Source: Candidatus Omnitrophota bacterium (GTDB lineage Bacteria; Omnitrophota; Gorgyraeia; Gygaellales; Profunditerraquicolaceae). From it: DNA of 64,000 nt. The stretch is taken from the NCBI GenBank assembly GCA_030650425.1, contig JAUSED010000005.1, positions 142,932-206,931 on the forward strand, given 5' to 3'. Below, piece after piece: positions 3,001 to 54,609 of the stretch. The position numbers and the translations under genes are program-made. Position 1 is the first letter of the stretch. Each line of letters begins with the position of its first letter. The notes below the pieces were generated by a model. It was not told the DNA's origin. It made no database searches and was given only the letters and a program-made list of their open reading frames with translations.

Positions 3001-6000
3001 GTTTTTACGCGATTTGTATGGAAGAATCGGCATGAATTTGGCAGGGCTCTTTTATGAAAAAGGCCTGCCCACAGGCACTGTTGAAGTGAGGCGGGAATTT
3101 GACGGTCGCGGTAATGAAATTTCCCATAGATTTGATATAGACGATGGAGCATACCCTCAGCTTTCTGTTGGGAAAATTGTTTCATTAGAAAAAGTTTTTC
3201 AGAAGGCCAAATTCTTACATTTTGGTTTAACTGCATTATTTCCTGCAACCCCTGTTGCAAAGGCGGTAAAAAAGGCTGTTGAATATGCAGAGCAATATTC
3301 TCTTCTGGTTTATTTTGACCCTAATATCAGGATTTCTTCTTGGGTTAAGATGTTCGGTACTCATGAACTGGCGGCTAAGAAAATAATCGATACAGTCAAG
3401 GATACCCTCAGGTATGCGCATATTATTAAGATAAGCGATGAAGAGTTGTTTTTCTTGAACGGAACAGAAAATAACCATAGCGGCATAGAAGAAGAGATTT
3501 TTAAGTTTGTGAGTGAATACAAGGAGTTAAAGTGGGTTCTATTGCTTGTTACCTGCGGCGAAAGGGGAAGCGAGTATGTTTTTCGCGGCAGTGGCACTGA
3601 CAACAAGAGAGAAATTGCCGCGGGCCATATTGAGGTGTATAAAAAATGGCCTTTTATAAGCGCTGTAGGCGCCGGAGATTCATTCAATGCCGCGGTAATT
3701 TCACGTTTATATCAGCTGCTTAAAGAGAAAGAGCTAAGCCGTATGACAGAAAAAGAATTGATGGATATCTTGAACTTTGCTTCTAAGGTTGCGGCTAAGG
3801 TTGTATCACAGGAAGGCGCTGTGCTTGAAAGAGAATGGAGGGGTAGGAAAACATCCAGCCCTCTTGACCTAAACGAGCTTATAAATGATCAGCTCAATGA
3901 TGTTCTGTTTAAGGCGCAAACGTTAGCAGCATCCGGAGACCATATAACTGCCCTATGGTTTTTAATGAATACGGCTAATCTCAGCATTTTAATTAACAGC
4001 TATAAGGGCAATCCGAAAAATATCGAGAGAATCAAAACCGCCCTTGAATTAGCAAAAAACTTGAAAAAAGCCCAAGAAGAAGCCAATGGGATTCTAAGCA
4101 GAGGCGCTCAGGATGCAATCAATAAAAGAATCGCCTTGAATAGAGAGCGCGTAGAAAAACTTCTGATTCCGGTTACGGATATCAAAGACATCCGTCAATA
4201 TCTACCGTATTTCGGGACATATGCCGTGGCGGGCATGCGTATCGAGAAAGTAGTGCATGTTTACGCGCCTTCTGTTATTGACGATATCAGCGCGGTAATT
4301 TTTAGATACAGGCGGCCGAAAGTCGACAAGAATATTCTTCACTACGCGATTTTTGTATTGGATAAGCCTAAAGCTCCAAGCCACCAGTTAATCGCGCGAG
4401 CTTTTGTGGAGAAGAATTATCAATACCACAACGGAGGCTCTGTTAGCACAACTACTTTTGATAAAAAAAGGAATAGGCAGAACAAAATAGAGGTTAAGTC
4501 GAGCATGGAAAAAGGAATTGCGTTGTTTGTCTATGCAATGTTTCGCTATGGAGGAGAGGTATGGTTATCAGATATTTCCCGGTCTGATTCAGCTACGCGT
4601 ATGTATCAACGTATTAAAGAACGCATCGAGGAAGATTTATACCCGGGGTTATTGATTGAGTATTTTCTTTCTCCAAGAAGGTGGCGTATAAGTATTAATT
4701 CGAATAGCGAATGGCTGCCTCCTATAATTATTACTGAGATTCCTTATTCCCCAAATGATTTAGCCAGCAGCCCAGTGGTTCAAAAAAATATAGAGATAGC
4801 AGAAAGCGCCGCCTCGCCGGCGTCCCCAATTTCTTTTGGGAATAATTCTATAAAAGTAGAAGTTAATGATTTGATTAGAGCTATAGAAACCGCTCTTGGT
4901 TTTGAGGGGGAAATTGAATTTGACGCAGTTAAGGCCGCCATTAAAAGCGCAGATAGGCTTTCTGAGTTAGGCGTATTAGCTACAGAAGCTTTGCCCGTGT
5001 TAATTAAAGCCGCGAAAGAACAGCGTTTTGACGACGATGGTGTATTTTGCCGCGACCATTTTATCGCAGCCTTAATACGGATATCTCCTGTTGAGGAAAG
5101 AGTAGAGAATTGTTTGGCAGAAATTATTTTAAGTGACCCCAATGAATATTCAAGAAGCGCAGCTGCAAGGCAGTTAGTAGAAGGGCTACAAATTCCTTTT
5201 AATAGTTTGGCGAGATCTGCTTTAGAGAAAGGCGTTCAGGAGAAAAATTGGCGGATTTCTAACCCATGCAAAAAAGCTTTAGGCTTGCGTTCCAGTTCGC
5301 CTTTCAACTCAGGCCGTGACAAGCTTAATCCGTTTGTGATACTAACAAAAAGTAAGTTACGGGAGTTATCTATAACTAACCCTATGGCTTGGCATTACTT
5401 GCAAGCTAAGCGTATTGAGGACGGAATAGATGTTTATGTGAAGAATATTAGCAAAGCACCCGAATTTGCCAAAAGGTTTAATGAAATATTCAAGGAGGTT
5501 GAAGCAAAAAAAGATGAATTGCAGAAGCTTGGGTTAAGAGAACAAATAAGCGAGATTTATGAAATAATGTTAAGGGCTTTTCCTAGGTTAGTATATGAAA
5601 AAGGCTATTGTGTGTTTACCGCGGCTGGAATGGCAAGATCCCTGAGAAATATTGGGCACAAGGATATCGCAATATACAGAATAATAGCATTAACTCAATC
5701 GTTTGTAATTAAAGAAGCTGGAGAAGAAAGCGAGTATATTTATATCGACCATAGGGCAGAGCAATTTATTATAAGAGAACCTATAATAGAATCTATAATG
5801 GAACCTAGAGGTATGAAAGAGTTGTTGTGTTTAAGTTTACCTAGTATAGATAAAATTTCCAGTTCGCCGCTGAAAGAAATAGTTGGAGCGACGGTGGTGA
5901 CGCGAGGCGCCGCCTCGCCGGTTTTGGGAAAAATAGAACTATTTCTAATTTTAAATAGATTTGATTTGAATTTCGCGAATACTACTAAAATGCTTTATAT

Positions 6001-9000
6001 TACGGGTTACAAGCGTGGATTTGTTCTTGAAGGCAGTGGCAGCGATAAGCGAGTCTACAACCGCGGCATTATATGTTCTTTTAAAACGAGCAGCAATTCT
6101 TACAATGGAGCTAGTTATATTCAGGACAGCAAATATTTTTATGAAATTAAGAATATTTTCTTCTTGGGCAGGAGTCAGTGTAGGATACACCAAGAGTTCG
6201 TATTCGGTGAGGACAGAGATACTGGCTTTAATTCTTTTATTCTCGAGCTCCTCAATAAAAGCGGTAACGCTTTTATCTCCTCGCAGGTGATCAATAATAA
6301 TATTGGTGTCGATAAGGTATCGCATAGATTAAGAGCTAATTCTTTTAAGAACACCGGTTTTCCATTCCCTGCGGATTTTATTTTCAAAGGCAATTCCTTT
6401 GGGGGCTTTACTCAAGATACCCGAGCTTCTCCTGATGAGATTAATAGTAGTAGAAATAGCGGCTTTTTTAAAAGAAAGTGGTATAGTTATCATCCACTTG
6501 ATATCTTCGATCTTTTCCTCAAGGGTTTCCAGCAATTCCATAGTTTTATTATCCATCAAATACCTCCTGCTTTAGTAACCGAGATAAATATATCACATAG
6601 GCATAAAGGAGTCAATATTTATCTAGGAAGCTGTTTCCGTCCACCTGACGCCTCCGCCGCCTCACCGGTGGCGAGTGTAGTCAGTACGCAATATGACAGT
6701 GTAGTATGGGCGGAGAAGGTGGAAGAGGTATCCGGAAATCCGGTAGAGCGCTTAGCGCAGATTATCCAGATTGCGGCGCAGAATGATATACAAGCTATAA
6801 GAACCGGGCTTATCGGGCTGCTTAATCTATTAAGAAAACACAACCGGCTCTATCGCTATCAAAGCGCAAGGCTGCTTTCCCAATTAGCTAAAATAGAGTT
6901 TTATGAGAAAATACTGCGCTCTATCGGCGGAGGAAAACTGATTGGCTTAATTCATTTGATCCCCCTTGAAGAAAGATTTGCATTTGAGGTCCCCGATTTT
7001 ATCGTTCTTCCTCCCGAGCTCAGCAAAGAAGCGGAAGAACGGATTTTTGATTTACTGGAGGAAGGCGTTTATATCTTAAGGAGCAGTTCATTCTTTGAAG
7101 ATACAGAAGGTTTTCCGATACGCGGCGCGTATGAGTCGGTATTTTTTGTCAAAAACCCCCAACAAAATGAATATCGCAAGGGATATGATTTAGAAGTTTT
7201 TAGGAACGTGAGGGTAAAAGTAAACAGAAGCTTTAGAGACTTTAAATACGCTGAAGATAGGCTATGCTTATTGTTAGAGCGGGTTCCGGGCCATACGGTG
7301 ACACTTAAGATTGGTTATGCTAATCGCAGCTGCTATTTTCCGTCGTTTTCAGGTGTTACTAAATATAATCCCTATAAACTAAGCCACATAGTATCGGAAA
7401 TAAATCCCGGTTTGAATACCCCCACGGTTAAAGGAGGATATCACCGGTTCGTCGATAAGGATACTGAAAGCGGAGAAATAAAGGTTCCAGAAGTTTCCCG
7501 GACTTTGCGGCTTTATGGGACTGGGGATGTAATAGATATTTCACGTAACAAGTTAATCAGCGCAGACATAGTGAATAACACCTTGTCATTATGGGTAGAT
7601 GATTCAGATAGTTATAAAGATACATCTTTGATTAAAGGCGTCCATGAAAAATTAAGCGCTATTATCTTGAGCTTAAAAGAAGATTCAGGCTATAGGGAAT
7701 TAGAGTGGTCGTTTGATTCCGGAAAGCTTTATGTCTATCAGAATACGCCAAGTAAAATATGCCGTTCTTTGTCAAGAATAAAGGTAGATATACCAGTTGT
7801 CCCTGAAGAGCGCCTGATTGTCTCTTGCGCCGGTGTCTTTGGCCACGGCGAATTCACCGGCCCCTTAGTTTGGGTTAAAGACAGAGATGAAATTATGTTG
7901 AAACGAGAGGAATGCAAGCGCATAGCCAGAGAGTTTCCCCGAGGGTATATTTTAATAGGCAGCCGTTATTTGTTTATGGATCCAGACATGGAATACGCAA
8001 CCAGCCAATATTTTGATTCAGCTTTAGGCAGACTCAAAGGCTGGGTAGACACAAGCGGCTTGCCGCTTTCCATTTGCGCGCATTACGCGGAGGGATTAGT
8101 TGACAAGAATATTATAGTTATTTCTCAGTCAGCTATCGATTACACTAAACTGGAGCGCTTCTGTGATCAGCAATTAAAAACCGGTATTTTCGATGATTAT
8201 TATGAGATACGTTATAGCGAGGCTTTATTCCGCATCGCCGCCAATGCTCTGCAAGATAGGGGCATACTGTATCTGGCCAGCTCTCCTGGCCCCGCCGCTT
8301 CGCCGCTTAACAACGATGATCAATTTAATGCCAACATGCCAAAATCAAGAGAAGATGGCGAATTAAAGGGGTATTTCGTCCTGGCGGTACAAAACACCAG
8401 AAATGTAGACACTTTACGTAACTCATCGACTATCAGCGAGTTATGTAACAAATACGATAAGGACAATATTACACAAACCAATACCGCCGCCTCGCCGGTT
8501 TCGGAAAATAGGAAGGGACAATTCTATCGTAACTGTTCATCGGCCATGGAGATAGACAGAAACGGTCTGAAGGATTTCGACGGGTTAAAAGTTATAGATA
8601 ATGAGGAAGGGATTTTTCTGGTTTCGAATCGTCTTGGTGTCAGAATCAAAGCTCAACGAAAGTCAATCGAATTTGAATTTATTTCCTCTCCGCTGTTGTC
8701 AACCGATGTACGCCTGCGAAGTGTACAATGGGGTAGCTCTCCGGTAGAAAATAGTAATTTTGAAAAAGCATATTTTGGTATTTTAAGAGAAATTTTCGGC
8801 AGTGAAAATAAAAAAATATGTTTCCATAGCACTGTAATCTTGGCTTTATATCTTGAAAGAAGCAGGCATAAAATAAAGATACTACCTTCCAAAGAAATTC
8901 CCCCTGTTCCTTGTTTCAGTGAGACATACAGCGAGATAAAAATAGGAGTTTTTGTAAATAAAATAACGGGTAGTTATTCTTTACAGCATTGGTTAGAATT

Positions 9001-12000
9001 TACCAGTTTAGGGAGAAGATTTTATTTAGATGCGGTCTATAATTCATTATGGGGCAATGGCCGAGACAGGATTATTTACGAAGAGATATATCCATGCTTG
9101 TTAGAAAATAAATACAGTCTTTACCCAATCCACGATATGGAAAAATTTTTACATAGCGGTGATTCTCAAATAAGAGAGCTAATGGTTGCAAAAGGAGAGG
9201 CTATATTGCGAGATGAGTGGAGGGTGTTTGGAACAGGTGAGATAGCGCTTCTAGATTTTCTGCCTCGATTATCGAACGGAGTAAATATCGCAAAAGCTGT
9301 TAGAAAGCTTATCGATGCATCTGTATCTTTGGAAGAGAATGCCAATGGTTTTATTCTAAATAAGGAAACTTACAATGCCTCGCCGCTGGCTTCTTGTAAC
9401 TTGGAAAAAATAGAGACGGTTAACTTTTTGAGTTATAGGCGAAAGATGTCTTTACGGCAGAAAGTGCTAAATGAGAATCGAGCTGCTTCACCCATGGGTA
9501 TTCCTAATAAGGTCATAACGAAAGAGCGGTTTGATGACCTCCTTAAAATTAAAAATTATGCTAATCCTCACGGTGAATATAAGAAGGTCTGGTATCCAGC
9601 TTCTGCTTCTGATGTGGGATTAGCCCTGTATGTTACTGATGGAGACAAATTTATCCTTTCAAATTTTGAGCATTTTGGAAATATGGATGATTTCAAAAAG
9701 TTTCCTGATGATGAGAAAGAAAAGCATTATTTCTTAAGGCGCACACGTAGCTGGCTTGAAGAAGTTCACTATGAAAACAGAATAAGCGCGCAGATTTTCT
9801 CTGAGTTAGAAGCGTTGGGCATAGATTACAATGATGTAGAAAAGTCAAAGATTAATGATGCCACTTTTAAATTGGTATTTAATTGGCGGCATCCTTTAGG
9901 CAATAGAACTAAGGAAAGAGTTATCGAATATAGAAATATACCCGTTCAAAGGCCGCCGTATTATCCGGAAGAGAAAGTAGATATCATAATAATTAAAGCA
10001 TTAAACGGATTCAATTTAGATCCAGAGGGCCTGTTTTTTATTTTAAATCCAGATGGGCTTATAATCAGCGATTTCTGTTTCAGCGATGTTTGGTATGAAA
10101 GAGTAAAAAATAGTCCTATTGCATTGAAGCTTAACAATAAATTTGGGTATAGTGCTAGGCATATCTGGTGGGCATTAGGAGAGGCGATTGAACTAGCAAG
10201 AGGCGAGGATGTATTTTTGTACAAGAACACCCCCGCCGCCTCGCCGGTTTCGGATGAAATAGGAGGACAGCCCCGTAGTAAGAGCAATTTTGACAATGAA
10301 TTTGCAGGGGCTGACCCTAAAGCTTTTTCAGGAGTAGTTATTTATGCGGGAGGATTATTTTCTTTTATAAGAGAGGACGGCGAAAAGGTCCACCGCAATA
10401 ATAATAAAAGCAATAATATAAAGAAGTGTCCAGTTATCCATAATGGGTTATTTCTTTCCCTTGATTACCCGGAGGAATATAACAAGGGCCAAGAGCCCCG
10501 CCAGGATATAGAAAGCCAGAAAGTTCATCGTTATTCTTTTCCCAATCCTACAAGAAATGTAAGCCATGGGATTTTACCCGAAGCAGTCGGGACAAATACG
10601 CCTACCACTAAGGACCCAAGCAATATCTTTGCTCCGTCCAGAAAGAAGTCAGATAGAGTGTCTCATTCTTGGCCAGATAACATACACCCCTATTCTATTG
10701 TCTTCAGGAATTTTGTCAAGAGTTTCCCCTTACGGAAATCCGCCGCCTCGCCGGTGGAAAATCGATATACGGATACATGGCTCAATGGATTACCTCTATT
10801 GCAGATCTTGGGAATCTTTGGAGGGATTAAGCGGCAACCGTTCTACTTCGATATGAAGGGCCGTATCGTACAGGCATACGGATGGGATGGCTTGCTAGAT
10901 GCTGTCTTGACGGCTAGGGATTCAGGGGGCGATACGTCCAGATACATAGAGAATAATGACTATATCAAATATATTGACTATTTAATCAGAGAAAGCCGCT
11001 GGGATACAAGCGCCGCTGATAATTTTAGCAAGTTACTGTTGAGTATAAAGGGCGAAGACGCATTCATAACTTTTAGTCAGGAAGTTCTGTCGGGGCTTTT
11101 GACGATAGTGGAAAAACATATTGAGGCCTATGTTGAAAGTCGTCATCTTTTCCGCGCACCGCAGGAGACCGTGGTCCAGCGGCCGGAATCTTATCGTACG
11201 GTGAAAAATATTTATAGAACGGAAACAGTTTCCTTCACAGAATGGAAACAGCTTTCATCTCTTTTGATGGCGGTATCAGAATCTAATCGTATTGGCGCGC
11301 TTATCCTATTGCTCGGGAACCAATGGGCGGCTAATTCCGCCTCGCCGGTGACGCTTGATGAAAGAAGAAACGTATTATTCCTTATCCCTATGGAGATGAT
11401 ACGCAGTGCTGGTAATAATAAGGAGGTTTCCGTTAAGTTGGGCTGGCCGTATGGACTTAAGGGCTTCCAGCAATACTCTATGTACTTTATCCATGGTTTC
11501 GGGAGTAATCCGCAAGATAATAATACCAGTATGATTTCCCAGTGGATAGAGCGCAATATTGGAAAAGTCCCGGTCTCGCGTAAGCAAAACAGCCTTGCGG
11601 GATTTGGCGATTGCTATAACCCTGCCATTAACCGCTTCAGCTTGTTTCAGTTCTTTGAGAGTAACGCAGTCAAAGCCTGCTTTGCGCAGCAGGTTTTCGG
11701 TTTCTTTCCAGACACAATGGTCAAGCAGGAACATAAGATTACAGGTTTAATGGGAATGTTGAAGTTCCTCCGCGAAATGAATTTCTTCTTCATCGAGGAA
11801 TTGATTGGCAAAGGCTATGCAGGCAAATATGTCTTCTACTTTCAGATCAGGATAGAATTTGTCAGAACAGATATCTTTAGGGGAATATCCGCTAGCCAAA
11901 AGCTCCATAACCATAGAAACAGCTATACGGGTGCCCTTAATATGGGGTTTACCATGGAGTACGTGTGGATCAATAGAAATTCTTTCCAGCAACCTTTTGT

Positions 12001-15000
12001 TCATCGATTAATTCTCCTGTTAGTAGTATTTAACATCTTTGGTAAGGAAAGTCAAGGTGAATTTATAATTAAACGCGAAGATCCGGAAGGCCCGGGGGAT
12101 CTACAGGATCTGGATCCGGGGGCATATGACTTAATTCTAAATAAGTATCGTGTCTCCGGAATTGCCACCTCTTGGGGATTAAGAGATATCCGAAGCGCAG
12201 ACATTATACAAGATATCTATTATGCATTAAAAATAATAGAAGATTTAGGCCGTAGATTAGGGTTATCAGGCAAGATGATTGATGGGGCACATAAGGTTTT
12301 TGCGCAAGTAATCTTTGCAGCCAGCCCGTTGGCCGCCGCCTCGCCGTCCTCGAGCCGTGTCTTAAGAGATGGCTCGAGGACCCCGAGCGAAGTGAGGGGG
12401 CAGGTGGATGAAAATCAGGCTAGCTCGCCGGTTAGAGAAGAGGAAGCTGCTGTCAGACTAGAAATTGCCAAAAAGCTTTGTCATAGCTTAAATAACGCTG
12501 TCAGTGGTTTTTATGCTTGGTTAACTTATTTGGAGCGGAAAACCCCTCATTTTGATAGAGGAAAAGGAAATACCCTTCTTGGGAAGATTAACGATTACAA
12601 TGAGCTGGTAAGCGAATCGGAGGAATTACTACAAAATCCGGATAAATTAAAGGAAACAGTTAATAAATTGGATACCCTAGTAAACGAAATTATAGAAATA
12701 TTGCCCAAGTTACGTAACTTTTATGATAACCAGGAGTTAACAGGAAGCATTGCATTAATTGGAGAAATAATTTCGGATGAATTACCAGAAAAACCGGTAA
12801 ATTTAAGCGAGGTTTTGCCCTGGATATTTCGCAGCGGGACGTTTTATCATGATTTTATGATAATAGATTACAAAAACTGCCTTGGGAAAGACGCATTTGT
12901 TTTTGTCAGCAAAGATAAACTATGGATTGTATTCGATAATTTATTGATGAATTCCATACAGGCTTTCCAGAAGTTTGATGTTATAAATAAAGAAGATAGA
13001 AGGGTTACGGTGGAGTTGGGTGAAGAAAGAGATTATTATACGGTTGTTTATTCCGATAACGGCCCGGGGATACCCGAAGATTTATTAAGCAACATCTTTG
13101 ATCCCTACGTAACAACTAAGGTCGGAGAACCCATATCGGGGTTGGGGCTTGCCATATGTAAGGAGATAGTCGCTAAGGCAAACGGCAGCATTACTGTAAA
13201 AAGCAAACAAGGGGAGGGCGCTACTTTTACTGTTTATCTGCCTAAAGAAACAAATGTTTTCGGAAAAGAAGGCGCCGCCTCGCCGCTGGCTGGTGAAGAA
13301 AATATAGGCCGGGAATTACAAGAGGCATTTGATAAAGCCGCATTGGATTTATTGTATTGGTTTTGCGGCATTAAATATCTTCCTTATGATTGGAAAATTC
13401 GTGCTTATATAAGGCCTTTAAGGCGAGGGGATTTACAGTTTTTGCTTGAAGAAAACTTCCCTACATTACTTTTTGATTTAAGGATAAATTGGTTTGAAGA
13501 AGTGATTGGCTATCGTCTTTACCCGGAAAGCGCAGGAATAAGAGAAAAAGAGATTATGCGGGGATTAAGAAAAGAGGTTTTTGATTGGTTCTTAAATAAT
13601 AGGCCGGCTGTTTTGGAAGAAGAGTTTGAAGGAATAAAAATAAAAGAATTTATTGAAGCGGCTATGACATCGACAGAGCAGCATTTACAATACTTAGGCC
13701 AAATGCTTGAGTTTATCAAAGGAGGCAAGCGGCAATCATTCGCTCCTTTTATGCAAAAAACGTTTAAAGAATTTCTTGAGAGAAGGATTAAAATTCTTAG
13801 ATGCCTGCGTCATATTGATCCAGCGTTTGTAATACACAAACTGCCTTTGTATGAGGAAAGAGTTAAAGAGATAGAAAATGAAGATATTGAGAGCGAATTA
13901 GAAGAGGCAAGAAAAGCGGGCAAAGAGGTTAAGGTTATAATAAAAGAAATCGCCAGGTATGAAGATACAGGCAGGCCATCTAGTCTTAGGGTTGAATATG
14001 AAGGCGAGATTGGCTTTGTGCGCATAAGAAACAGCGGTTTTAGCTCCTGGGCGCTTTCTCAACACCCTAAAGCTATTATTGGGGAAGAGGTTTACGCAAG
14101 GGTAATTGCTGTTAGGCCGCTTGAGTTTGGATTAATCAAAGAAAAAATCGATATTCCAAGAGTAGATACGAGGATTGTTTACAGGACAGACGCGGCTGGA
14201 ACAGGAGATAATAGGTTTAAGGAAGCCTTTAATAAGGCCGCGGAACAAAAAGCCAAAAAAGCTAAAAAAGGCCCATCCTCGGGTTCTCCGCTTGAGGAAG
14301 AATTCAATTTTTTGCGGCTACCGGTTAAACAAATAACAAATAAATGGCTGGAGTATATAAGAACAAGTTTTAGTGAAGACGAAGCCGCAAGTTCAAAGAT
14401 GAAGGGCGCGCTTAATGATTTAATTCAGCAGCTCGAAGCTTTAGGCGCAGAGCCTTTTGATAAGACAACAGAAGTAAGTATAGGTGATTTATATATAGAT
14501 ACCCTCTCCGGCACTATTACAAAAATAACAGATGTGAGAATAGGGCTTACCTGCGAGACGGATAGAATATACCCTATGCGCAAAGAGAAAAGAGAGCTGG
14601 CTATGACGGGTGGTAAGTTCTTATTAAGAAGAAGCGGTGTTTCTAGAGAGCAGGCAGAGTTAGCCTATCGGTCTCAAAGAGCAGAGAAAATTATCAAGGA
14701 TATCGAATTCGCTGTAGCAGTTAGTAACCACAAAATGGCTGTCGATTTTATAGAGGAATTAAGAAGGGATTATTCTGATATTGTTAGCTGTGCTAAATTA
14801 TCTGAACTGGATAGGAAAGTCGGCACTGTTCATCCAGACACACCTACTCCCGCTGCGCACAAGGCTTCTTCGTCAATTAAGAACAGCCTTACACTTTACA
14901 CATTAAACATTGCACAAACCATTCCCGTCGCCTCGCCGGTAGCGAAAATAAGATTGCTGGGAGATTATCCTTTAGCTAAAAATTCTTCCGGCAGCATTGT

Positions 15001-18000
15001 TTCGGTTAATCTTGAGGCAATTTTTAAGAATTTGGTATCGCGGGTAATCAGAATCGTGCCTGGTGAGGATAAAGCCAATGAAAGTAATATGGTATCAAAT
15101 GGGTCTAATGGATATTCTTCTTGTAATTTATTAGCCCGCAACAACTCGATTTCATCGGGGATTAGCACTTCAAGGAGCTCAGTTAGTTTATTGGCATCTT
15201 TGTTAATCTCTTTGGCAGGGTATTCTTTCTTGCGGCGGAGTAGAAACCTTATTTCTAATAGCGTAGTTAAAGAAATACAGCCTTTGATTTCCTTTGTTTC
15301 GACGCGGTTGATAATTTCAAAAGGGGCCTTCCAGAGATTCTTATTAGTAGCGGTTTCTGTTTCTTTGAGCAGCCAGTTAGCAATGACATCCGTATCAAGC
15401 AATACCGTTTTAATCTCTTTCATTGGGTTGGCAATAAATTTATTTTACCTTACCGCAGAGACTAAGGCGTTGGCCTTTGATAAAACCAGTGGAGGTTTTT
15501 CCTGCAGGAATAACCCCCTTGTACTTACCAAGCAATTCTCCAGCGGTGTTCGTCTTGCTAATTTTGGAAGTTTGCGCTTCCGTTCCCAGTACCCTCAGAG
15601 CTTCTCTCAGTGTAGTCATATCTCATCACCTCTAACAAAGGTTAACATAATCTCAAGACGCCGTCAAGATAATTCCGCCGCCGCCTCGCCGGTTTCAAAA
15701 GAAGCAGAAACAACTAAAACATTACTTTCCTTCCCAATTGCCGACTTGGATAAAGTTTTAAAGCTGGGCATAAAGTTGTTTGATTTTGGGTGTGGGCCTA
15801 TTGCCGGATGCCGCGGAGAATGGGGTTCTACTATTGTAAAACATTATCCCTATATAAACTATTATGGTATAGATGCGCAATTTTGTCTTGAGCGGCAATT
15901 GCGCCTGCCTTTTAGAAGACTCTTAAGTCTATTGGGAATACGCTTGGCAAGAGAGAGGATGAAATTTGAAATACAGTCCTATTTTGAACCGTTGCCGCAA
16001 GAATGGGGTAAGGCCGACATTATCATCTTAAATTCTCCTGAAATCACAGAGGATTATTTGGCGCGTATTAATAAGGGAGAGGTGGCGAAGGCGTTCTTTA
16101 AAAATCTCAAAGAAGGGGGAATAGGTTTGATTCTTTTTGAATCACATCTTTATTCATCGATAAATTCACTAATTACATATATATCTAGAGAGGCTGTGGC
16201 AGGCGGCCGAATGTATAAATCTTTCTCTATGGAATTTGGCGAAGAGAACATTAACCAAACAAATATCCCTAAGAATTACTATCCTGAGAAATTGACTGCC
16301 TATAGAAATTGGCAATTTGCCCAGAGAAATAACCGTCCTGATTTTGAGATTAGTTTTATCCAGGTTAGGAAATCGCTAGTAAATGGTAACGCTCCCCAAA
16401 GGGACACCTCTGCTACTCAAGGCGCCGCCTGCACTGAGCGAGCGCAAGCGAGTCGAGGCGCCTCGCCGCTAGTCTTGGAAGATAAGGTAAATGAAGAGTT
16501 AATAATATTATACGTGTTAAAAGATGAAGTATCGTCGCTTAGCGATAAACAAAAATATAACTTCGTTAAAAACAGGCTTTCCCTTGAGAAGAGAATAAGT
16601 TTATCTATCCCCGCCGCCTCGCCGGTGCAAGACAAAAACAGAATGTTATATGGAGGAAAACAGGCAAATTTATTAGGTCAGAAATATCTTGAAGGTATTT
16701 CCTTAGGCGAAGGCGTTACCATTGAAGTTATGGCTGCCGAAGAAGAGAATATTTTTACAACCGATGATTTTATAGATTTTCTTGTATTTAACAACGAATT
16801 AGTCAGTCAGATAGAGCATGTTTTGAAAGAATCCGGCAAGATTATGGAAGAAGAAATTCAAGGTTTGTTGTCGCAATTCGAGTTTCCTAAATCGCTCGAA
16901 GAGAAAGCGAATATTATCCAAAGCCATTTTGCTAAAGATGTTCTGCTTCTTGCCCGCGGTTCAGGGCAGAAAGAGGGCTCCAAAGAAGCAAGCCGCTCAG
17001 GAGTTTCTTTAAGTAAAAAAATTGACACTGAAACCTCTCTTTTTGAAGTCCTCCAGGAAATCTATCTACACGAACTAAAACAGGTATATCTTAAAGAGAG
17101 GCAGTCAATTTTGAAAAATCTTCTGGCGGTGACAGTTGTGCCGTACATAGATTTTGATTGCGGCATCATTGGCTCTTATTCCAAGAAAGATAACTCAACG
17201 ATTATTGATGTTGTCGTTGGCTCTTTAGAGACGGCCGTAGACCCCGCGAAACTGGGTTTAACCACTAACGAACGCCAGGTGCACGCCACAGCCCTGACTA
17301 TCAAGGTTCAAGATGGCAGGATTTTTGTTGCTAAAGAATATAACCTTAGGCCGCAGGAGATTATATATAAAGGTAAACACTATTTTCGCGAAAAGGCGAC
17401 CAAAGAGATATGGGAAGCAATGACAGATGTAATAGATGCAGAAAACGTGAAATGTATTCGCTGCCCGTTAAATAAAGACGAAATTTTAACCATTGATAAG
17501 CTAACGCGCCTGGCGGCTGAAGAATCCGATGCAGATATTTTATGGGAAATAGGCAAGATCGGCCGTATCCACGAACCTGCTTATGAGCTTTATATCCTTC
17601 AGGCAGATCCTTTAGTGCCTGTCGGATTTTATCAGCCTATCCCTGATAATTTAGAAAACATTATGGCGCGAAGTTATATTTCCCACGGTAATATACGCCT
17701 TGAGCGGGCAGTTGTGATGCTGGTAGAGGCGGGAGCTAAGGCAAGTTTTGTGGAAGCGGCCGCAGAAATCTTGGCTGAGGCAAGGATTCCTTTTATTAAA
17801 GTTCAGCGTCAGGCAGCCTGCCTTGATTTAAGCTTAGCGCACCGGGCAGCCGTAGAATGGGCAAATGTTTTGATTGATCCTGCGGCGCCATCCAAGTGGC
17901 CGCATACGCAGGTAAATTTGAGGGATTTTATTCGTGAGCATAATCATTCATTGTTTTTTGCCGATGGCAGGGTTTCCCAATTGGCTTTTGCCGGCGGCAG

Positions 18001-21000
18001 GGCTTTTCAGGAGCCGCTTCGGCGCTTAAACTATTGGCGGTTCGGAGGTGGCGTCTATCTAAGCGAAGAGTTGGTCGGTTTTATAGCTAATGACAGAGAA
18101 GCGATTATGTTCGGCCCAGCGCAGGATAAGAAGGTAACGGATTGTTATAGCAGAAACGGCCTTAGCCATTATTTTGGCAGCCATATTACCTTTTTAAGCT
18201 ATTTATTTGATGACGAGCTTAGAAATGGCTTTCTTTCTTTTGAGCCTACGGACAAAGAGCAAATGGATATAGTTTTTGGATACGCGATGGATTATTTGCT
18301 GCAAAGGTGCAAGAAAAGAGAGCCTCTTATGCCGGCATTGGAAGAATTACTTTCTAAGATACGGTTTGAGGAAAAGCAGAGGCTTAAAGAGGCAGGCGGT
18401 TATTATTCCTCCTGGGATAAAGAAAAAATACAAACCCTCATTGCAGAACATCCGCAGGCAGAAGCGCAATTATCCGCGTTAAAAGAAGAGATCAATTGGC
18501 TTAGGCGTCTTATTGCCCTTCCATTTTATCCAAATTACAGCCAGAGCCATATTACCAGAGCAGTGTTAAAGATTTTTGATGGCACCCGCGGTTTTGAGTG
18601 GAGATTTGGCGAAGAAATACAAGAAGCACATCCAAGGCCGCAAGGGCCGTTGAGGATTTTAATTGTTGATAGAACCCTTATAACGAGTCTCTACCTTAAG
18701 TCTTTTATTGAGGCGAATTTTAGTAAAGCAACAGTTGAAGCAATATATAATTGTTATGACGCGGCTGAAAAAATACCGTTTTTTGTACCGGATATTATCA
18801 TCTTAGATGGTAGGACCTCACACGATGATTATGGGCACGAATTAATGAGGAAGTATAACCAATTATCAAACGCGCCGCGGCTGATTTTAATTAGCGCCTG
18901 GGGTTTAGGCGACCTCTACCATGATACACAAGAATTGCGGAACGCTTATGCAAAAATACAGGTCTTAGGTTTTTACTCCCGCAGTGAAAACGAAGAAAAA
19001 ATTATCCCCTGGTTTAAACAAGTAGAAGATGAGATCAAACCAGCAAAAGAAGAAAGCCAAACCGCTGAAAAGAAGAAAGTAACTATATCTAAGGTGCTTT
19101 TTATTCATTATTCTAGCGAATTATTGAGAAATATTAGACTATATACTAAAAAGGCGCCTTTTGAAATCCTGACAGCTGATACAGAGGTAATGGCGGTTGG
19201 CATGATTAAAAAGCATCGTCCTGATATATTAGTCTATGACGTTAATTTTACACTTGAATCCCAAGCGCCTATAATCGGAGAATATATTAGGGTAAAAGGA
19301 GAAAGCGCTTATGTGATTCCTTGGTCAGCTGCGGAGTATTCCTTGAATGAAATCCGTCAGAGGCCAGGATGGAAAAAAATATGCGCACAGATAAAATTCC
19401 TTGATCCTGTGGTGATAAATTCAGATGCCGCGTTTTCGCGCTCCGGAGAAGGCGTAGATTATGTTATGGATGAAATCTTTAGGATAGTTTCAGGCCTGAC
19501 CGGGATTTCATCCAGCCCCTTAGCCAGCCCCGCCGCCTCGCCGGTCAGAGAAGAGGAAGCTGCTGTCAGATTAGAAATTGCCAAAAAGCTTTGTCATAGT
19601 TTAAATAACGCCGCCAGTGGTTTTTATGCTTGGTTAACTTATTTGGAGCGGAAAACCCCTCATTTTGATAGAGGAAAAGGAGATACCCTTCTTGGGAAGA
19701 TTAACGATTACAATGAGCTGGTAAGCGAATCGGAGGAATTACTACAAAATCCGGATAAATTAAAAGAAACAGTTAATAAATTGGATACCCTAGTAAACGA
19801 AATTAAAGAAATATTGCCCAAGCTACGTAACTTTTATGATAGTCAGGAGTTACTAGGGAGCATTGTATTAATTGGAGAAATAATTTCGGATGAATTACCA
19901 GAAAAACCGGTAAATTTAAGCGAGGTTTTGCCTTGGATATTTCGCAGCGGGACCTACTATCATGATTTTATGAAAATAGATTACAAAAACTGCCTTGGGA
20001 AAGACGCATTTGTTTTTGTCAGCAAAGATAAACTCTGGATTGTATTCGATAATTTATTGATGAATTCCATACAGGCTTTCCGAAAGTTTCATACTCTAAA
20101 GAAGGAAGATAGAAGGGTTACGGTGGAGCTGGGTGAAGAGAGAGATTATTATACGGTTGTTTATTCCGATAACGGCCCGGGGATACCCGAAGATTTATTA
20201 AGCAATATCTTTGATCCCTACGTAACAACTAAGGTCGGCGAACCCATATCGGGGTTGGGGCTTGCCATATGTAAGGAGATAGTCGTTAAGGCAAACGGCA
20301 GCATTACTGTAAAAAGCAAACAAGGGGAGGGCGCTACTTTTACTGTTTATCTGCCTAAAGAAACAAATGTTTTCGGAAAAGAAGGCGCCGCCTCGCCGCT
20401 GGCTGGCGAAGAAAATATAGGCCGGGAATTACAAGAGGCATTTGATAAAGCCGCGGAACAAAAAGCCAAAAAACCTAAAAAAGGCCCATCCTCGGGTTCT
20501 CCTATAGAAGATATCACCGCCTCCCCAAGAGGCGGAGCGGATAAATCCCCAAGAATTCTTGATCCTGACTATAAAAAATCTTCGCGTTTTATTGAAATCG
20601 ACCCGGAATATTTTCTGCCTGACACTCAATCCGGATTTTGGCTAATCGGGAAAAATGCTAAAGACATTTTTACAACTTGCACCGATATTGTATTCTTAAC
20701 TAAAGAAGAAAGAATATTCCTCGCTCATCTTCAGATTAATCCCAAACACCTTGAGAGCACAAACGAAAGGCAAAGCAAAGAACTGTTAGAGCGGCTGGTA
20801 GAGGACTGGAAAACCTATGGAGATAAGGACGAAAAAGGCCAAGGAGTCAGCACTTTTAATCCTCGAGAAATATTTAACGCGACAACTAAAGCGCTGTTAC
20901 TGAATAAATATCCCGCAAGAGAACCTTTTACTAATTGTTTAAGAGATTTTTTATTAGAGAAGGGGCTGGGTAAAGATAATATAAAAATAGATTTTGCAGC

Positions 21001-24000
21001 GCATCCAGCTGAGGATACGCAGATAGAATCTGTCAGTGTTTACCTGTGGCCTAAAGATAGACTTATAGAGACTGCCTTTGGCATATATGATTTACATTCT
21101 CCCGAGAGAAATAAGATTTTTGAGGTACATCGCTATCTTCGCGCCGAATTTAACTATCCGATTGTCTACGATTTACGCAATAATATTACAGCCGGCCCCG
21201 CCGCCTCGCCGGTGGATTCGAATGAAAAATCACTCTCGCCATTATATAAATCCTTCATTACCATTAATAAAGGAAAGTTAGAGAAACTCTCGGATTTACT
21301 TATTCAGCCAGATAAAGATATGCGGGATTTTGCGTTTGCCGCGCTTAAACTCTGCAAGAGAATGCCTAAAGAAGCCAAAGATATAATTAAAGAAGTAATC
21401 ACCAAAGTCCGCTTTGAGCAAATGATTGAGTTCTTTATGAAAGAGCCATCCGAATATGCCTTTAATTGCATTAAGTTATTTATAGATTTAAACCCCGCAG
21501 CAGCCCGTGAAAGTATCGGTAAAAAACACCTTTTAGAATTTATATCAATGATTAAAAGAAGGCATCCTGCCTGGATAATTTTATATAGATGTCTTGTGGA
21601 GTCTGGAAGATTAAATCCTGTTGAAATTGACGAAGAGGTCTTAAGAAATTTAATGAATTTAGAGGAAATGCCAAAAGAGCCTCTAAGCGGAGTAATACAA
21701 TATTCTATTCTAATAGCAGTTGAAGATTGCCTTAAATTATTTTCTTCTTTAAATAAGAGCGCTGTGACTCATAACCTTTTAGGGGAATTATTTTCTAGAG
21801 TGTCACCGGTTAATTTAATAGAAGAGCCTGATAAAGCAGCGCGCGCTGAAAATTTTCTTAAAATACTAGCGCCTTTCAATATTGAAAGCGCAAAATCATT
21901 TATTACGGGTCCGCTTCTAGAAAAGATGGCGAAATTGCGTAGAGGGCCTTTTAGGTTTTTTATCTCCATTAACCCTCAAGCAATCACCAAAAGTGTTGTG
22001 GTTGTTTTAGAATCTTACTTTGATCCTAAATACAATGATCATTCTGGCGCAATATCACTCTTATCTAAAGCTCACGCCTTGAATCCTGATGTGTGCAAAA
22101 AGGTTATTAAGGAAGATCTCTTAATACAACTGATGCGCCTGTTTTTTCAGAAAACACACATTTTTTCTTTAAGATACGCTTCTCTTATTAGAGAGTTAAC
22201 AAAATCCCTAAAATTAGAAGTCAAAAATATAACCGTGGTTTCCGATTTTCTTGGTGGGCTTTTGGAACTGTTATTGCGTCAGCTTAGCGGAGTAGGCGGG
22301 ACAGGTTACAAATATGATACAGAGAAAATTATTTCTTATATTAAGTTTTTTGCTCCTCTTTATCCAGAAGCAGTGGCTGACTTAAACCCTAAAGATAAGA
22401 CTATTAAATACCTTAAGGGGTGGCGTCGTATTCTTAATATAGATGAGGCGTATGAATTTCGCATTCTTAAGATTATAGAAGAAACTTTCGGCAGTACATG
22501 GCAGCCTGTTTTTAGAAAGGTAAAAGTAAATTGGTGGAATGGAGAGAAAGTTATACAACCAAAAGCTGGTAAAGCGCCTACAATTTCCTTTGAAGTTAAT
22601 GTAGACAAAGAAAATGTGACTGCGCCAAGCAAGCAATTAAAGGCTAGATTATGGGCCTGTGATAATAGTAAGCAAGAGCCAGTATGGCGTTTCTATAATG
22701 GCCGCCAGACAGATTTTACAGGGCAAGACACAGCTAAATTTGAAGTTTTACTCCCCAGAGGTTTTTTTGGAGAAGGGACAATGCAATATAGCACGGACAG
22801 CGGTAAAACCTGGCATTGGGCTAATATGGGCTTTGGCGACAACCTTACAGTATTACCAGCGCCTTCCGCCGCCTCGCCGGTTGCTAAAATAGCTTACAGC
22901 ATAAAGCATGTATCACATAAAAACTTCCTTCTTCTAAATCCAACATTATTGATTATTGCTGGTTTATTGCCATTAATCGCATTGCCCCTCCTTAATACAG
23001 GAATAATTGCGGTTATAATATCCGCAGGACTAACATTCCTAGGAGCTACAATCTTATCTTATTGGGTCATAAGACTATTCTTCTATCGGGGCTTAAGCCT
23101 CTCAACGAAGAAAATATTTTTATTAATATTTAGAATAGTTCAAATTTTTGAGATTGTATTTGGAATTAATCTATTGGCAATCATCGTATTGAATCTTTTG
23201 GGGATTAGATCCCCAAGATCTATTATCTTTTCAGAACTCTATCATTGGACATATGCCATCTTGACTTTTTACGAAATAGTTAACCATTACATTTATAGAG
23301 GATTAGGTAGTACTTTTAAATTTTATAATGACCTTTGGAATAATATCATAAGATTATTCCTTAAAGATAAGATTGATTTTAGTAAACCGGTAGGGGGTGC
23401 GATTGGAATTCAATTAAATAAGTTAAAAAGAGTGTTAGATATGGGAAAAGATTCTCAATCAAAAGAGCACAGTAACTCAAGTCCATTGGCTGTAACCTTT
23501 AGTCAGCTCAGAGCCCATAGTTCAGAATTCATAGATACGAGACTATCAACTATGAACAATGAAGAATTAGCTAAACATGCCGCCTCGCCGGTTTCGGGGT
23601 TCCTTGTATTGTTAGATGATAAGCAAGCCCGTTGCTTAGCAGATGAAGTGAATAGGACTTTAGGGGGAAATATTTTATCTTGGTGTCAGTCAGTAATAAT
23701 GGATGACTATTTTTGTGAGTTTGAATCCGGCCAACGTATATCTACGGATAATAAAGTGTCACAGGTTATTCGTTTTGGGCCATTGGTATTTGTTGTGATT
23801 TCTAGGACGCCCTCTAAAATAATAAATAATCTTTTGAAACAAGATATTGCTGAACTTAAAAAAAGGCTGGGAAAGGTTTATTCAGAGAATAAAACAAATA
23901 TTTTCTTTATAACTCCGTCTTACTATGACGTGTCGCCGTTGAGTAAATTTACTATGCCGGTTATCGCTGCTATGTTTAATTACAGGAATGAATTCAAGGA

Positions 24001-28500: not shown

Positions 28501-28857
28501 ATGGAAGAACAGCGTTGCGCGGCGCGCTGGAAGATTAATCAGGAAGCAGATTTGTGCGTTGATGAAGGAATTAAATCCATTCCTTGCGTAGTGGAAGATA
28601 TAAGCTCCCGCGGCATGCGTGTTTCTTTGGGAAAGGATCTCTTCCCTGATGTTTTCGCAAATTTTAACCTTACTCTTAGCGATGATTTTACATTTAACGC
28701 CGGAGCTCAAGTGGCTTGGGCTGAGAAAATCTATGAAAAAAATGTTTACGGGCTTAGTTTTAGCCGCATAGAAGAATCGACGAAAAACAGGATATGCCGA
28801 TATGTCCAAGATAATTTTCCTACTGAAATGACCAAACAAGCGTGGAGCGGAATATAA
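28501..28857 (+). CDS. PilZ domain protein
   Basis: QRCAARW (RxxxR) and EDISSRG (DxSxxG) motifs. GGAGGTGGG SD. Confidence 0.7.
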   Translation: MEEQRCAARWKINQEADLCVDEGIKSIPCVVEDISSRGMRVSLGKDLFPDVFANFNLTLSDDFTFNAGAQVAWAEKIYEKNVYGLSFSRIEESTKNRICRYVQDNFPTEMTKQAWSGI

Positions 28858-29517
28858 ATGTACGAACGCAGAAAATTAGCAAGATGGTTAGTTAACCAGC
28901 AGGCTAAAATTAGATTAGAAAAGAAAGATTGCGCGGTGCCTTGCTACATCAAAGAGATCAATTTTAGCGGAATGCAGATTGTTTTGGCTCCTAGACTGGC
29001 GGCTAGCCGCTATATTAAATTCGAGCTGGCCTTATCTAACGAGTTTATGCTGAAGTCAGAGGTATGGGTAGCTTGGCACAAAGAAATCGAGGGCCGGAAT
29101 GTCTATGGGCTATATTTTAATAAATTAACGCAAGCGGATCGGGACGGAATTTATGAATTTCTTTTTAATAGGATTCCGGACAAATCTTTAGAAGGAGGTG
29201 AAAAGATGGAAGATCACAGGATATTCCAGAGGTTTAACGTTAGGTTCCCGGCTAAACTCTTAGATTTAACTAACGGAAACGAGTTCTCTGCTGAAACCTG
29301 CGATATCAGCGCCAAGGGTATCGGGTTTGTGCTCAAGGATGACTTGCCCGCCAACACACCGCTAGAGGCTTGGTTGGAGGTTCCGGATAACCGTGAGCCT
29401 CTTTATGCCCGGGGTTTGGCTGTCTGGTCCCGGCAGGATGCTGACTTTGGATATCGTATTGGAATGGATTTGGAAAGAGCGGATCTGATGGGTCTGTCCA
29501 GAATTTTAAGAGTTTAA
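28858..29517 (+). CDS. Tandem PilZ domain protein
   Basis: Two RxxxR / DxSxxG pairs (ERRKLAR, HRIFQRF...CDISAKG). ATG abuts the previous stop. Confidence 0.7.
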   Translation: MYERRKLARWLVNQQAKIRLEKKDCAVPCYIKEINFSGMQIVLAPRLAASRYIKFELALSNEFMLKSEVWVAWHKEIEGRNVYGLYFNKLTQADRDGIYEFLFNRIPDKSLEGGEKMEDHRIFQRFNVRFPAKLLDLTNGNEFSAETCDISAKGIGFVLKDDLPANTPLEAWLEVPDNREPLYARGLAVWSRQDADFGYRIGMDLERADLMGLSRILRV

Positions 29518-34994: not shown

Positions 34995-36161
34995 GTGTTT
35001 ATGAAAAAGTTAGTGATGTTTTTAGCAGTCTTGGCTTTAGCTATGCCGATCATAGCTATGGCTGAAGAAAAAGCAACAGAAGCGACGACAGCGCCAAAGG
35101 AATTTGTGGTTTATAGCGATAAAGGCGCAAGGATTAACCACTACATTCCTTCGGGATGGATGGGTGATTATGGCGACATTAAGATGAATGACCAAGCAGC
35201 GGATAATCCCCATAGCGGCGCAACCAGCATTCAGTTTGTCTACAACGCGAAAAAATCCCAGAATCAAGGTTGGGCAGGCGTTTATTGGCAGAACCCGGCG
35301 AATAACTGGGGAAACAAAAAAGGCGGTTTTGATTTAAGCGGGATGAATAAACTAACCTTTTGGGCCCGCGGCGCCAAAGGCGGCGAGGTGATTCAAAAGG
35401 TTATGATCGGCGGAATCAAAGGCACCTATCCGGATACATCAGTTGTGGAGATGGGCCCGATTGAGTTGACTGACGCCTGGAAAGAATACACCGTTAATCT
35501 TAGCGGGAAAGACCTTTCCTATATTAATGGCGGATTTGGCTGGACCACGACCGCGGATTTAAATCCCGATGGAGCGACTTTCTACATTGACGATATTAAA
35601 TTTGAGTCGGATCCCGCGTTAAAACCTGAAGGCAAAAAGCAGGAAGCTGTTCCGTTTTATGTTTATTCCGATCGCTCTTCAGCGAAGAATCATTTTATTC
35701 CTTCGGGTTGGATGGGCGATTACGGTGACATAAAATATGACGGTTCCTCAAAGGAAGACCCCTATTTAGGGGATACCTGCATAAAGATAGCCTACAATGG
35801 CCAGAAGGCGCAAAGCGCCGGCTGGGCAGGGATATTCTGGCAGAACCCGGCGAATAACTGGGGGACGATTGATGGCGGATTTGATTTATCCAAAGCAACC
35901 AAGCTCTCCTTCTGGGCCCGCGGGGCCAAAGGCGGCGAACGCGTCGAAGAGTTTAAAGTCGGCGGGATCATGGGTGAGTTCTCTGATTCTGATAGCGCGG
36001 TTATCGGCCCGGTTATGTTAGAGAAGGAATGGAAGCAATACAGCATCGATCTTAAGGGTAAGGATATGTCTTATATTATCGGCGGTTTCTGCTGGTCGGC
36101 GAATGTCGATAATAATCCCGAAGGAGCTACTTTCTATCTGGATGAGATTAAGTACGAATAA
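34995..36161 (+). CDS. Secreted protein with two tandem roughly 180-aa carbohydrate-binding-module-like repeats
   Basis: Signal peptide. Internal duplication (YSDKGARINHYIPSGWMGDYGDIK / YSDRSSAKNHFIPSGWMGDYGDIK; GWAGVYWQNPANNWG twice). Confidence 0.55.
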   Translation: MFMKKLVMFLAVLALAMPIIAMAEEKATEATTAPKEFVVYSDKGARINHYIPSGWMGDYGDIKMNDQAADNPHSGATSIQFVYNAKKSQNQGWAGVYWQNPANNWGNKKGGFDLSGMNKLTFWARGAKGGEVIQKVMIGGIKGTYPDTSVVEMGPIELTDAWKEYTVNLSGKDLSYINGGFGWTTTADLNPDGATFYIDDIKFESDPALKPEGKKQEAVPFYVYSDRSSAKNHFIPSGWMGDYGDIKYDGSSKEDPYLGDTCIKIAYNGQKAQSAGWAGIFWQNPANNWGTIDGGFDLSKATKLSFWARGAKGGERVEEFKVGGIMGEFSDSDSAVIGPVMLEKEWKQYSIDLKGKDMSYIIGGFCWSANVDNNPEGATFYLDEIKYE

Positions 36162-36192: not shown

Positions 36193-36284
36193 TGCGAGCA
36201 GGAAAAGGTGACAGTCACGGAGAAAAGGTAACAGTCACGAAATACGTGACTGTTACCTTTTCTTCACCTTTCCTGGCTCGCGAT
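36193..36284. repeat. Nested palindromic element containing AAAAGGTAACAGTCACG-AAATAC-GTGACTGTTACCTTTT (perfect 17-bp stem) plus an outer GCGAGCAGGAAAAGGTGA/TCACCTTTCCTGGCTCGC stem
   Basis: Intergenic. Related to the element at 54557-54595. Probable terminator or REP-like element. Confidence 0.7.
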
Positions 36285-54554: not shown

Positions 54555-54556
54555 AG

Positions 54557-54595
54557 AAAAGGTGACAGTCACGAATTTCGTGACTGTCACCTTTT
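54557..54595. repeat. Perfect palindrome AAAAGGTGACAGTCACGAA-t-TTCGTGACTGTCACCTTTT between amt and glnK
   Basis: 19-bp arms. Same family as 36224-36262. Confidence 0.75.
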
Positions 54596-54609
54596 CCAGG
54601 GGAGGAAAG

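Follow-up and report, generated by a model that had tools for sequence, protein, structure and literature searches.

A 64,000-nucleotide stretch of the genome of a Candidatus Omnitrophota bacterium (contig JAUSED010000005.1, positions 142,932 to 206,931; hereafter the window) carries a giant open reading frame (ORF), which is a head-to-tail, in-frame array of protein-sized cassettes of about 200-1,000 amino acids joined by a short Ser-Pro motif. Conserved and locked in phase, this junction marks the cassette boundaries, at which duplication, loss and exchange of modules take place. Selection maintains the giant frame free of stops, including where a cassette has its toxin-antitoxin genes on the opposite strand. 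The region 16628-20406, which an initial annotation had described as what looks like a functional REC-REC-HisKA-HATPase hybrid sensor kinase, coincides exactly with two neighbouring junction-bounded modules. It is best explained, with a probability estimated at about 65%, as two adjacent in-frame cassettes of an Omnitrophota-type giant gene, of the "Archaeovorin" or "multi-enzyme" class, built from junction-joined modules. Judging by sequence comparison, cassette 1 encodes a PPDK_N-like protein that includes a divergent receiver, and cassette 2 is a DHp-CA histidine-kinase core recently copied in at a junction.

A giant frame divided by a phase-locked junction

The giant frame lies on the + strand at 2-28369, where at least 9,434 codons follow one another without a stop until the stop codon at 28367-28369; it is listed as 65-28369 and is open back to base 2. 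The N-terminus being cut by the window edge, the start of the ORF lies outside the window, and all figures given here refer to the in-window portion (at least 28 kb). When codon usage is trained on 24 flanking genes, the giant frame appears host-like and is favoured almost everywhere, the exceptions being three spots where the minus strand scores better and each of which holds intact minus-strand genes. An alternative genetic code was ruled out, the neighbouring genes terminating normally.

Many junctions of the giant ORF share a 14-nucleotide (nt) core, GCCGCCTCGCCGGT, encoding Ala-Ala-Ser-Pro-Val, of which 20 copies occur with at most one mismatch against 0.01 expected. All 20 are on the + strand, within the giant ORF and in a single phase, and conservation falls off sharply beyond about 16 nt. 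At the protein level, the peptide [A/S/G]SP[L/V/I/M] is present 46 times in the 9,434 amino acids (aa) of the giant ORF, whereas neighbouring proteins totalling 10,869 aa contain two and shuffled sequences 1.45. Cut at the motifs, the ORF yields units some 200-965 aa long and, between the "...SSPL" end of one unit and the "AASPV..." start of the next, short linkers; as in a polyprotein, a conserved peptide stands at the module boundaries. The general form of the junction is [A/S][A/S]-S-P-[L/V], coded mostly by rare GC-rich codons (xxC TCG CCG). The 7-mer CTCGCCG reaches a density of 0.48/kb on the sense strand of giant ORFs, compared to 0.03/kb on the antisense strand and 0.06-0.13/kb outside; it is enriched 10-18-fold on that sense strand, and 88 of its 90 copies share one phase. 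Across 164 Ser-Pro junctions from many species, TCG accounts for 65% of the serine codons and CCG for 74% of the proline codons, compared to 10% and 29%, respectively, in the rest of these ORFs.

Several known types of repeated element were considered and rejected, namely (i) a Chi or DNA-uptake-type genome-wide motif, the core being restricted to the giant ORF and to one phase, (ii) a MITE- or RPE-like in-frame insertion, the conserved stretch being just 14-16 nt, and (iii) a CRISPR-like array, the "spacers" being 0.5-3 kb of coding sequence. A scan of genome contigs with the 17-mer GCCGCCTCGCCGGTTTC returned single chance matches only, in high-GC genomes, and neither Rfam families nor tRNAs were found at the junctions.

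The same architecture in other Omnitrophota

A metagenome scan anchored on the PilZ gene downstream of the giant ORF recovered 44 loci, and nearly all of those with enough upstream DNA exhibit a giant + frame running off the contig. The order giant ORF then PilZ gene(s) is kept down to 33% PilZ identity (loci L122 and L125-L168), and species sharing a junction have PilZ proteins just 33-60% identical. In the larger relatives, the top repeated peptide and DNA word is the junction, be it ASPL(A), encoded by GCCTCGCCGCT (L137, L152, L157, L158, L163, and L165), SSPV, encoded by CAGCTCGCCGGT (L126 and L153), SSPA, encoded by AGCTCGCCGGC (L132 and L145), AAPAG (L154), AAAP (L162), or [Y/H]RDNGG with synonymous variation (L130). 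Contig L122 holds another Omnitrophota giant ORF ending just before a PilZ gene, with the junction "SASPLA" encoded by GCCTCGCCGCTGGCG; the tail of this ORF, designated P0141, is a relative of cassette 1.

At this conserved locus, module content is almost wholly different between relatives. Where two genomes do share a module, the stretch of homology opens, in either partner, 5-13 residues inside the motif, and it lies at differing distances from the ORF end, as for the pairs window 9006/L163 962, window 7046/L152 1645, L137/L165, which is bounded at both ends, and L158/L165. The tails of the related giant ORFs carry HEAT/TPR, methyltransferases, HPr, CheD, REC, PPDK_N and, in one tail, Trypsin_2, and the HPr in L126 sits exactly between two SSPV junctions. 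Each module appears equivalent to a free-standing protein, as suggested by a subset of them, namely PfkB, the kinase, the methyltransferases, the HPr in L126, and P0140, a stand-alone homologue of cassette 1.

Many relatives (L130, L133, L137, L147, L148, L153, L157, L158, and L168) also have in common a conserved C-terminal module that spans the last 400-650 aa or so of their ORFs and ends about 23 aa before the stop; neither the window ORF nor that of L165 has it. Besides, 2 of the 38 contig heads examined, those of the independent short-read contigs L122 and L157, start exactly at a junction core (…GCCTCGCCGCTG…), which would fit co-occurring strains differing beyond a junction and is suggestive at best.

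The two cassettes of the region 16628-20406

Cassette 1 (16628-19522, + strand, 965 aa) is opened by a core of the GCCGCCTCGCCGGT type (AASPV) at 16613-16626 and ends in SSSPL. Its N-terminal segment (16646-17008), which contains a "YGGKQANL" motif, weakly resembles the ATP-grasp family PPDK_N (15.8 bits, E 0.009, under the cut-off), and P0141 bears PF01326. Further downstream, the first receiver proposed in the initial annotation (REC1, 18656-18904) is a putative, divergent one; its 23.0-25.7 bits (E 1e-5 to 1e-4) fail the Pfam Response_reg cut-off of 30.2. The acceptor aspartate position is retained (DIIILD) and aligns in a custom receiver profile, and the beta-alpha pattern is visible solely in a model with a pLDDT of 35. 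The second proposed receiver (REC2, 19080-19330) is not established and is at most a degenerate receiver-like stretch, the Response_reg match at about 19115-19249 reaching 14.1 bits (E 0.054) over profile positions 8-52 of 111 and the custom profile 4 bits, with no match in a search of PDB sequences.

An exhaustive search of 1.84 billion cluster representatives with cassette 1 returned two relatives only, P0140 and P0141. P0140 is a stand-alone gene of 1,000 aa, 34% identical across aa 108-753 of cassette 1 and without a kinase domain. At the position of REC1, it shows by eye a REC-like stretch (...VMIVDDD...), which a CheY phmmer search that included P0140 failed to pick up. A word-indexed homologue search with 16628-20406 gave remote HATPase matches only, and the same search with 6671-10249 gave no match.

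The boundary between the two cassettes is a compound junction, J18 (19508-19546, + strand), which reads SSSPL-ASP-AASPV and has its 14-nt core at 19532-19545. It is one ordinary junction among the 46, and its core is identical in kind to those of 19 further junctions separating unrelated modules. As proposed initially, J18 does stand at a module boundary, here between modules of 965 and 285 aa; that this boundary lies inside one coherent protein is not supported.

Cassette 2 (19547-20401, + strand, 285 aa) comprises a predicted DHp helical hairpin, with its histidine at 19595-19597, and a HATPase_c domain (20027-20362), and its C-terminus is AASPL, with a core at 20387-20400. The HATPase_c match reaches 82.3 bits against a cut-off of 26.4, and PDB kinase sequences are matched down to E 4e-13. 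Compared with 19 HisKA kinases, the ATP boxes are conserved, i.e., N174/N178, D213-G215-G217 (G1), F227, and G239/241/243 (G2), and His22 (KLCH) occupies an invariant column where it aligns with the phospho-acceptor. An AF2 model based on a multiple sequence alignment is confident for the CA part, the helical DHp part having a pLDDT of 40-60, and matches the DHp-CA structures of YycG, HK853, ZraS, and CckA at E of about 1e-14 over 270-290 columns; the hybrid LvrB is among the fold matches. On these sequence and model comparisons, cassette 2 is a genuine histidine-kinase core with putative autophosphorylation. Of the hybrid kinase initially described, profile searches retain HATPase_c above its cut-off, and the alignment retains the N, G1, F, and G2 boxes as conserved columns; both receivers score below theirs, and the H-box histidine is aligned with no HisKA profile match.

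A second copy of the kinase module, 96% identical at the nucleotide level, is found at 12434-13288 on the + strand, with a 5' junction ASSPV (12419-12432). The duplicated block as a whole, 12424-13341, corresponds to 19537-20454 at 96% identity and is continued by 14222-14289, corresponding to 20435-20502; its first bases fall within a junction core, and its other end coincides with a GSP[L/I] junction. The module before this second copy is unrelated to cassette 1 and carries an antisense toxin-antitoxin pair, not a receiver. Since the duplicate ends at junctions and the other copy follows a non-receiver module, the order receiver then kinase reflects recent cassette copying; as far as can be read from sequence, it is a product of cassette shuffling and not an inherited hybrid-kinase architecture. 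Between the two copies, 14 codons have changed synonymously and 14 non-synonymously (pN/pS 0.27), with the catalytic boxes unchanged, so that both are under protein-level selection.

That REC-REC-DHp-HATPase forms one coherent signalling protein, with J18 as its inter-domain linker, is an improbable alternative. In its favour, purifying selection acts on an intact kinase core, the acceptor aspartate is retained in REC1, and architectures in which a receiver precedes a kinase occur in nature, e.g., the hybrid LvrB. Against this stand the 96% duplicate located after a non-receiver module in a block ending at junctions, the stand-alone homologue P0140 devoid of kinase, the profiles, which support neither REC2 nor HisKA, and the sequence of J18, shared with 19 junctions between unrelated modules. 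The same order of domains was sought in P0140 and in the kinase paralogue at 12434-13288, neither of which has it, and a single-sequence AF2 prediction across REC1, REC2, J18, and the kinase was uninformative (pLDDT 35). The claim that J18 behaves as a linker of one evolutionarily coherent signalling protein is not supported.

Toxin-antitoxin genes antisense to the giant frame

Toxin-antitoxin cassettes occur on the minus strand of the giant ORF, namely (i) a PIN toxin (5951-6325, 56 bits) with a 76-aa upstream ORF (6329-6559), together 5951-6559, with cores at 5909 and 6656, (ii) a DUF5615/DUF433 pair (11375-11734 and 11747-12004, 70 and 78 bits), together 11375-12004, beginning 26 nt past the core at 11336, and (iii) a second PIN toxin (14965-15423, 49 bits) with a 59-aa upstream ORF (15440-15619), together 14965-15619, with cores at 14927 and 15680. 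All these PIN and DUF433/DUF5615 genes are intact, and the + frame is open across all of them. The toxin stop codons lie 25-29 nt from the left-hand core, which makes the antisense cassettes compact and junction-bounded. Translated in the giant frame, such operons would yield about 250 aa of junk.

Where the two frames are codon-aligned, a stop on the + strand appears as TTA, CTA or TCA in the antisense gene. None of these codons is present in the aligned frame of the antisense genes, though TTA makes up 34% of the leucine codons in flanking genes. Under synonymous resampling, the probability of finding no stop is 0.0014, 0.0094, 0.0004, 0.0086, 0.40, and 0.017 for the six antisense ORFs of the window. 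The DUF433/DUF5615 pair is antisense in the giant ORFs of L137, L145, and L146 too, again with an unbroken frame and a probability of zero stops of 0.008-0.13. A promoter scan yielded no more sites than expected from shuffled sequence, and individual sites, e.g., the promoter-like one at 6615-6587 beside the PIN cassette 5951-6559, are suggestive at most.

A fourth junction-bounded cassette (10250-10756), through which the + frame is open throughout, appears to be read on the minus strand. Its near-consensus promoter TTGACA-16-TAGAAT (10719-10692) is followed by a tandem of small ORFs for hydrophobic products, MNFLAFYILAGLLALVIFLRVIKGKK and MDNWTLLYIIAFIIIAVDLFAVLSYKRK, and by two hairpins resembling terminators; it might represent a type I toxin-like locus or one for small membrane peptides. 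In L146, at about 3300-4500, a segment rich in transmembrane sequence (RNHERGAAW[TI]DIVVWL.IVSAAVILL) is directly repeated on either side of the antisense DUF433/DUF5615 cassette, which suggests an insertion with duplication or an insertion into a tandem repeat.

That the array is translated and shuffled, and not an inert spacer, was proposed at the outset and is supported by the 9,434 stop-free codons, the host-like codon usage, the pN/pS of 0.27, the avoidance of antisense stops, and the modules starting at the motif.

Genomic context

The remainder of the window (28.8-64 kb) is an ordinary bacterial chromosome with every gene on the + strand, comprising PilZ, a sugar ABC transporter, ROK, LacI, ribonucleotide reductase, MnmG, GS-III, GOGAT, and Amt. 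The MnmG protein is 100% identical to one from a Candidatus Omnitrophota metagenome-assembled genome, and one flanking gene is also present in a Logan assembly of run SRR13727527; the sequence is therefore natural and stems from a phylum in which giant ORFs were already known. Together with its phylum, the length of the giant ORF (above 20 kb) and its mixed content of enzymes, regulatory domains and transmembrane segments, e.g., the transmembrane module at 22883-23488, place it in the class of Omnitrophota giant ORFs as defined in the literature (PMC10066038; 10.1101/2023.11.21.568195).

Immediately 3' of the giant ORF, two PilZ-like ORFs stand in tandem (28503-28858 and 28858-29517). Short intergenic repeats, 86-94% identical, are scattered over the window (28210-28256, 57298-57344, and, inverted, 46554-46603; also 36220-36263 and 54554-54596). 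One copy falls inside the last 70 codons of the giant ORF, beside the palindrome AGGGGACATTTAAATGTCCCCT (about 28296-28318), so that the annotated C-terminus may run into an intergenic-type element. Within the giant ORF, a small junction-flanked element is present twice with 72-83% nucleotide identity (8546-8755 and 27912-28119; 5861-5922 and 28097-28158), reading ...FDGLKVIDNEEGIFLVSNRLGVRIKAQ..FEF[IV]SSPL...SSPVE and SSPxxEIVGATVV..SSPV, and the linker RNSSSAIGLCRNGL of P0141 resembles it. Elsewhere, an unannotated gene of 388 aa (34995-36161) contains a tandem duplication (35145-35599 and 35697-36151, 66% nucleotide identity).

Proposed mechanism and its weighing

At the DNA level, the conserved core would serve as a recombination joint, the single phase keeping each exchange in frame much like phase-compatible exons do; at the protein level, the Ser-Pro junction would form a flexible linker. 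By analogy, it is probably a serine-protease processing site as well; the form [A/S][A/S]-P-[L/V/A] is similar to Ala-Ala-Pro-Leu/Val/Ala, the classic substrates of serine proteases of the subtilisin, elastase, and alpha-lytic types. Cleavage at the junctions would free the modules and discard the junk peptides from antisense cassettes, and the kinase could phosphorylate REC1 if both cassettes stay tethered or co-localised. In analogy with chromosomal integrons, the toxin-antitoxin operons would guard the repeat-rich array from deletion. A wider proposal, put forward here tentatively and with considerable doubt, is that giant genes are translationally fused integron-like arrays, in which the core would be at once a recombination joint and a Ser-Pro cleavage-site code and in which recoded antisense toxin-antitoxin operons would stabilise the array.

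Several observations weigh against the reading of the giant ORF as an array of exchangeable and processed cassettes. Most modules are without detectable homologues, no obvious junction motif was found in L144, L146, and L164, and Pfam HisKA-type profiles gave no family match on cassette 2 at E ≤ 1. No recombinase or protease domain was found in the window proteins, the N-terminal part of the ORF lying outside the window, and folding eight junctions as single-stranded DNA revealed neither an attC-like nor any other hairpin (z-scores from -1.0 to +1.1). That TCG CCG is conserved at the nucleotide level is easier to reconcile with a role in DNA or RNA than with a protease site alone; conversely, a peptide kept through synonymous change, as [YH]RDNGG in L130 and the AGC CCA TTA forms of SSPL in the window, fits a protein role better, and the junction may have either role or both. 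Cleavage at the junctions is putative and drawn from analogy.

A possible, if doubtful, alternative is a single uncleaved, giant, membrane-anchored multidomain protein that grew by domain accretion, where the Ser-Pro motifs are flexible linkers and their nucleotide identity results from recent duplications. Peptides rich in alanine, serine and proline are typical linkers, the giant ORF does contain a transmembrane module, and the literature treats such ORFs as single giant membrane-associated proteins (10.64898/2026.06.07.730766; PMC10066038). Nonetheless, ordinary linkers are not a fixed tetrapeptide in fixed codons across species with 33-60% PilZ identity, the junk translations of toxin-antitoxin operons, about 250 aa each, would stay in the protein permanently, and small soluble partners such as HPr are found exactly between two junctions.

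It is unlikely that the array is integron-like and not meaningfully translated, with the junction as an att-type site and the open frame either incidental or serving transcription-translation coupling. The cassettes are compact and core-bounded, with toxin stops 25-29 nt from the left core, their content is highly variable among relatives at a conserved locus, and toxin-antitoxin cassettes are typical of chromosomal integrons. However, the junctions lack an attC-like hairpin, no integrase is found within the window, the giant frame has coding codon usage and is under purifying selection, and peptides of one giant Omnitrophota ORF have been detected (PMC10066038). An assembly or annotation artefact, e.g., a contig wrongly merged across short repeats or a frame called in error, is hardly conceivable. 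The related contigs L122 and L157 do have an end lying exactly on a junction core, but assembler k-mers exceed 14 nt in length, dozens of independent assemblies made from different samples show this architecture, and 9,434 stop-free codons are impossible by chance at about 40% G+C.

Comparison with known systems

Omnitrophota commonly carry giant ORFs, one of which has been detected at the peptide level (PMC10066038), and the encoded proteins reach up to about 147,000 aa in the literature. The domain lists of Archaeovorins include HATPase_c, PPDK_N, and methyltransferases, their cleavage has been proposed with "cleavage points" stated to be unknown, and West-Roberts et al. reported S8 and C39 peptidase domains in such proteins (10.1101/2023.11.21.568195); a "multi-enzyme metabolic cluster" class has also been described (Nielsen & Lui 2026; 10.64898/2026.06.07.730766). 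The window ORF, at least 28 kb long, belongs to the same phylum as these giant ORFs (West-Roberts et al. 2023; Nielsen & Lui 2026; Seymour et al. 2023) and shares with them poorly conserved sequence and a like domain content, i.e., HATPase_c, PPDK_N-like, methyltransferases, REC, and transmembrane segments, with HEAT/TPR in relatives. Earlier publications already cover giant ORFs in Omnitrophota, the mixture of enzymes and regulators that they encode, and the suggestion that their products are processed by proteolysis. A limited check of terms found no mention of the junction motif, junction-bounded shuffling or antisense toxin-antitoxin genes within the ORF in the giant-gene preprints, nor of toxin-antitoxin genes in Seymour et al.

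With chromosomal integrons, the giant ORF has in common a long one-orientation array of compact promoter-less cassettes with a short conserved site between them, interspersed toxin-antitoxin cassettes with their own promoter, and rapid turnover between relatives. Unlike them, its site is 14-16 nt long without attC hairpin, its cassettes are fused in one frame without start or stop codons, and no IntI integrase was found in the window, the 28.8-64 kb part included, the 5' end of the array lying outside. Polyproteins, be they viral or multi-core RiPP precursors such as the cyanobactin precursor PatE, likewise combine many units per ORF with a short conserved flanking peptide; they differ from the giant ORF in its scale (tens of modules over tens of kilobases), its bacterial chromosomal context, the putative status of cleavage here, and the lack of a protease domain in the part of the ORF seen. 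Hybrid histidine kinases with N-terminal receiver(s) similarly present a DHp-CA core, with its His, N, G1, F, and G2 boxes, downstream of a receiver-like domain, whereas in the window the two became neighbours recently, by way of cassettes, a sensor domain is missing, a second receiver lacks support, and the whole resides inside a protein of at least 9,434 aa. Finally, the VENN motif of CdiA and the PxxxxDPxGL motif of Rhs proteins, with their orphan toxin cassettes, are also conserved in-frame junctions acting as breakpoints for the swapping of variable modules, but the giant ORF has serial junctions, and its modules are enzymes and signalling domains instead of toxin tips.

Significance for giant Omnitrophota genes

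The signalling claim that first drew attention to this region is the least remarkable part of it, namely a real kinase core standing beside a weak receiver through a recent cassette copy. The antisense operons purged of reverse-strand stops represent an unusual selection on overlapping genes and constitute direct evidence, at the sequence level, of a need to keep the frame readable. The junction bears on how giant Omnitrophota genes are built and on whether their products function as a single chain or after cleavage. Being phase-locked across many species, it supplies concrete candidate boundaries for both cleavage and recombination, and it offers a way to split giant proteins into units for structure prediction and proteomics.

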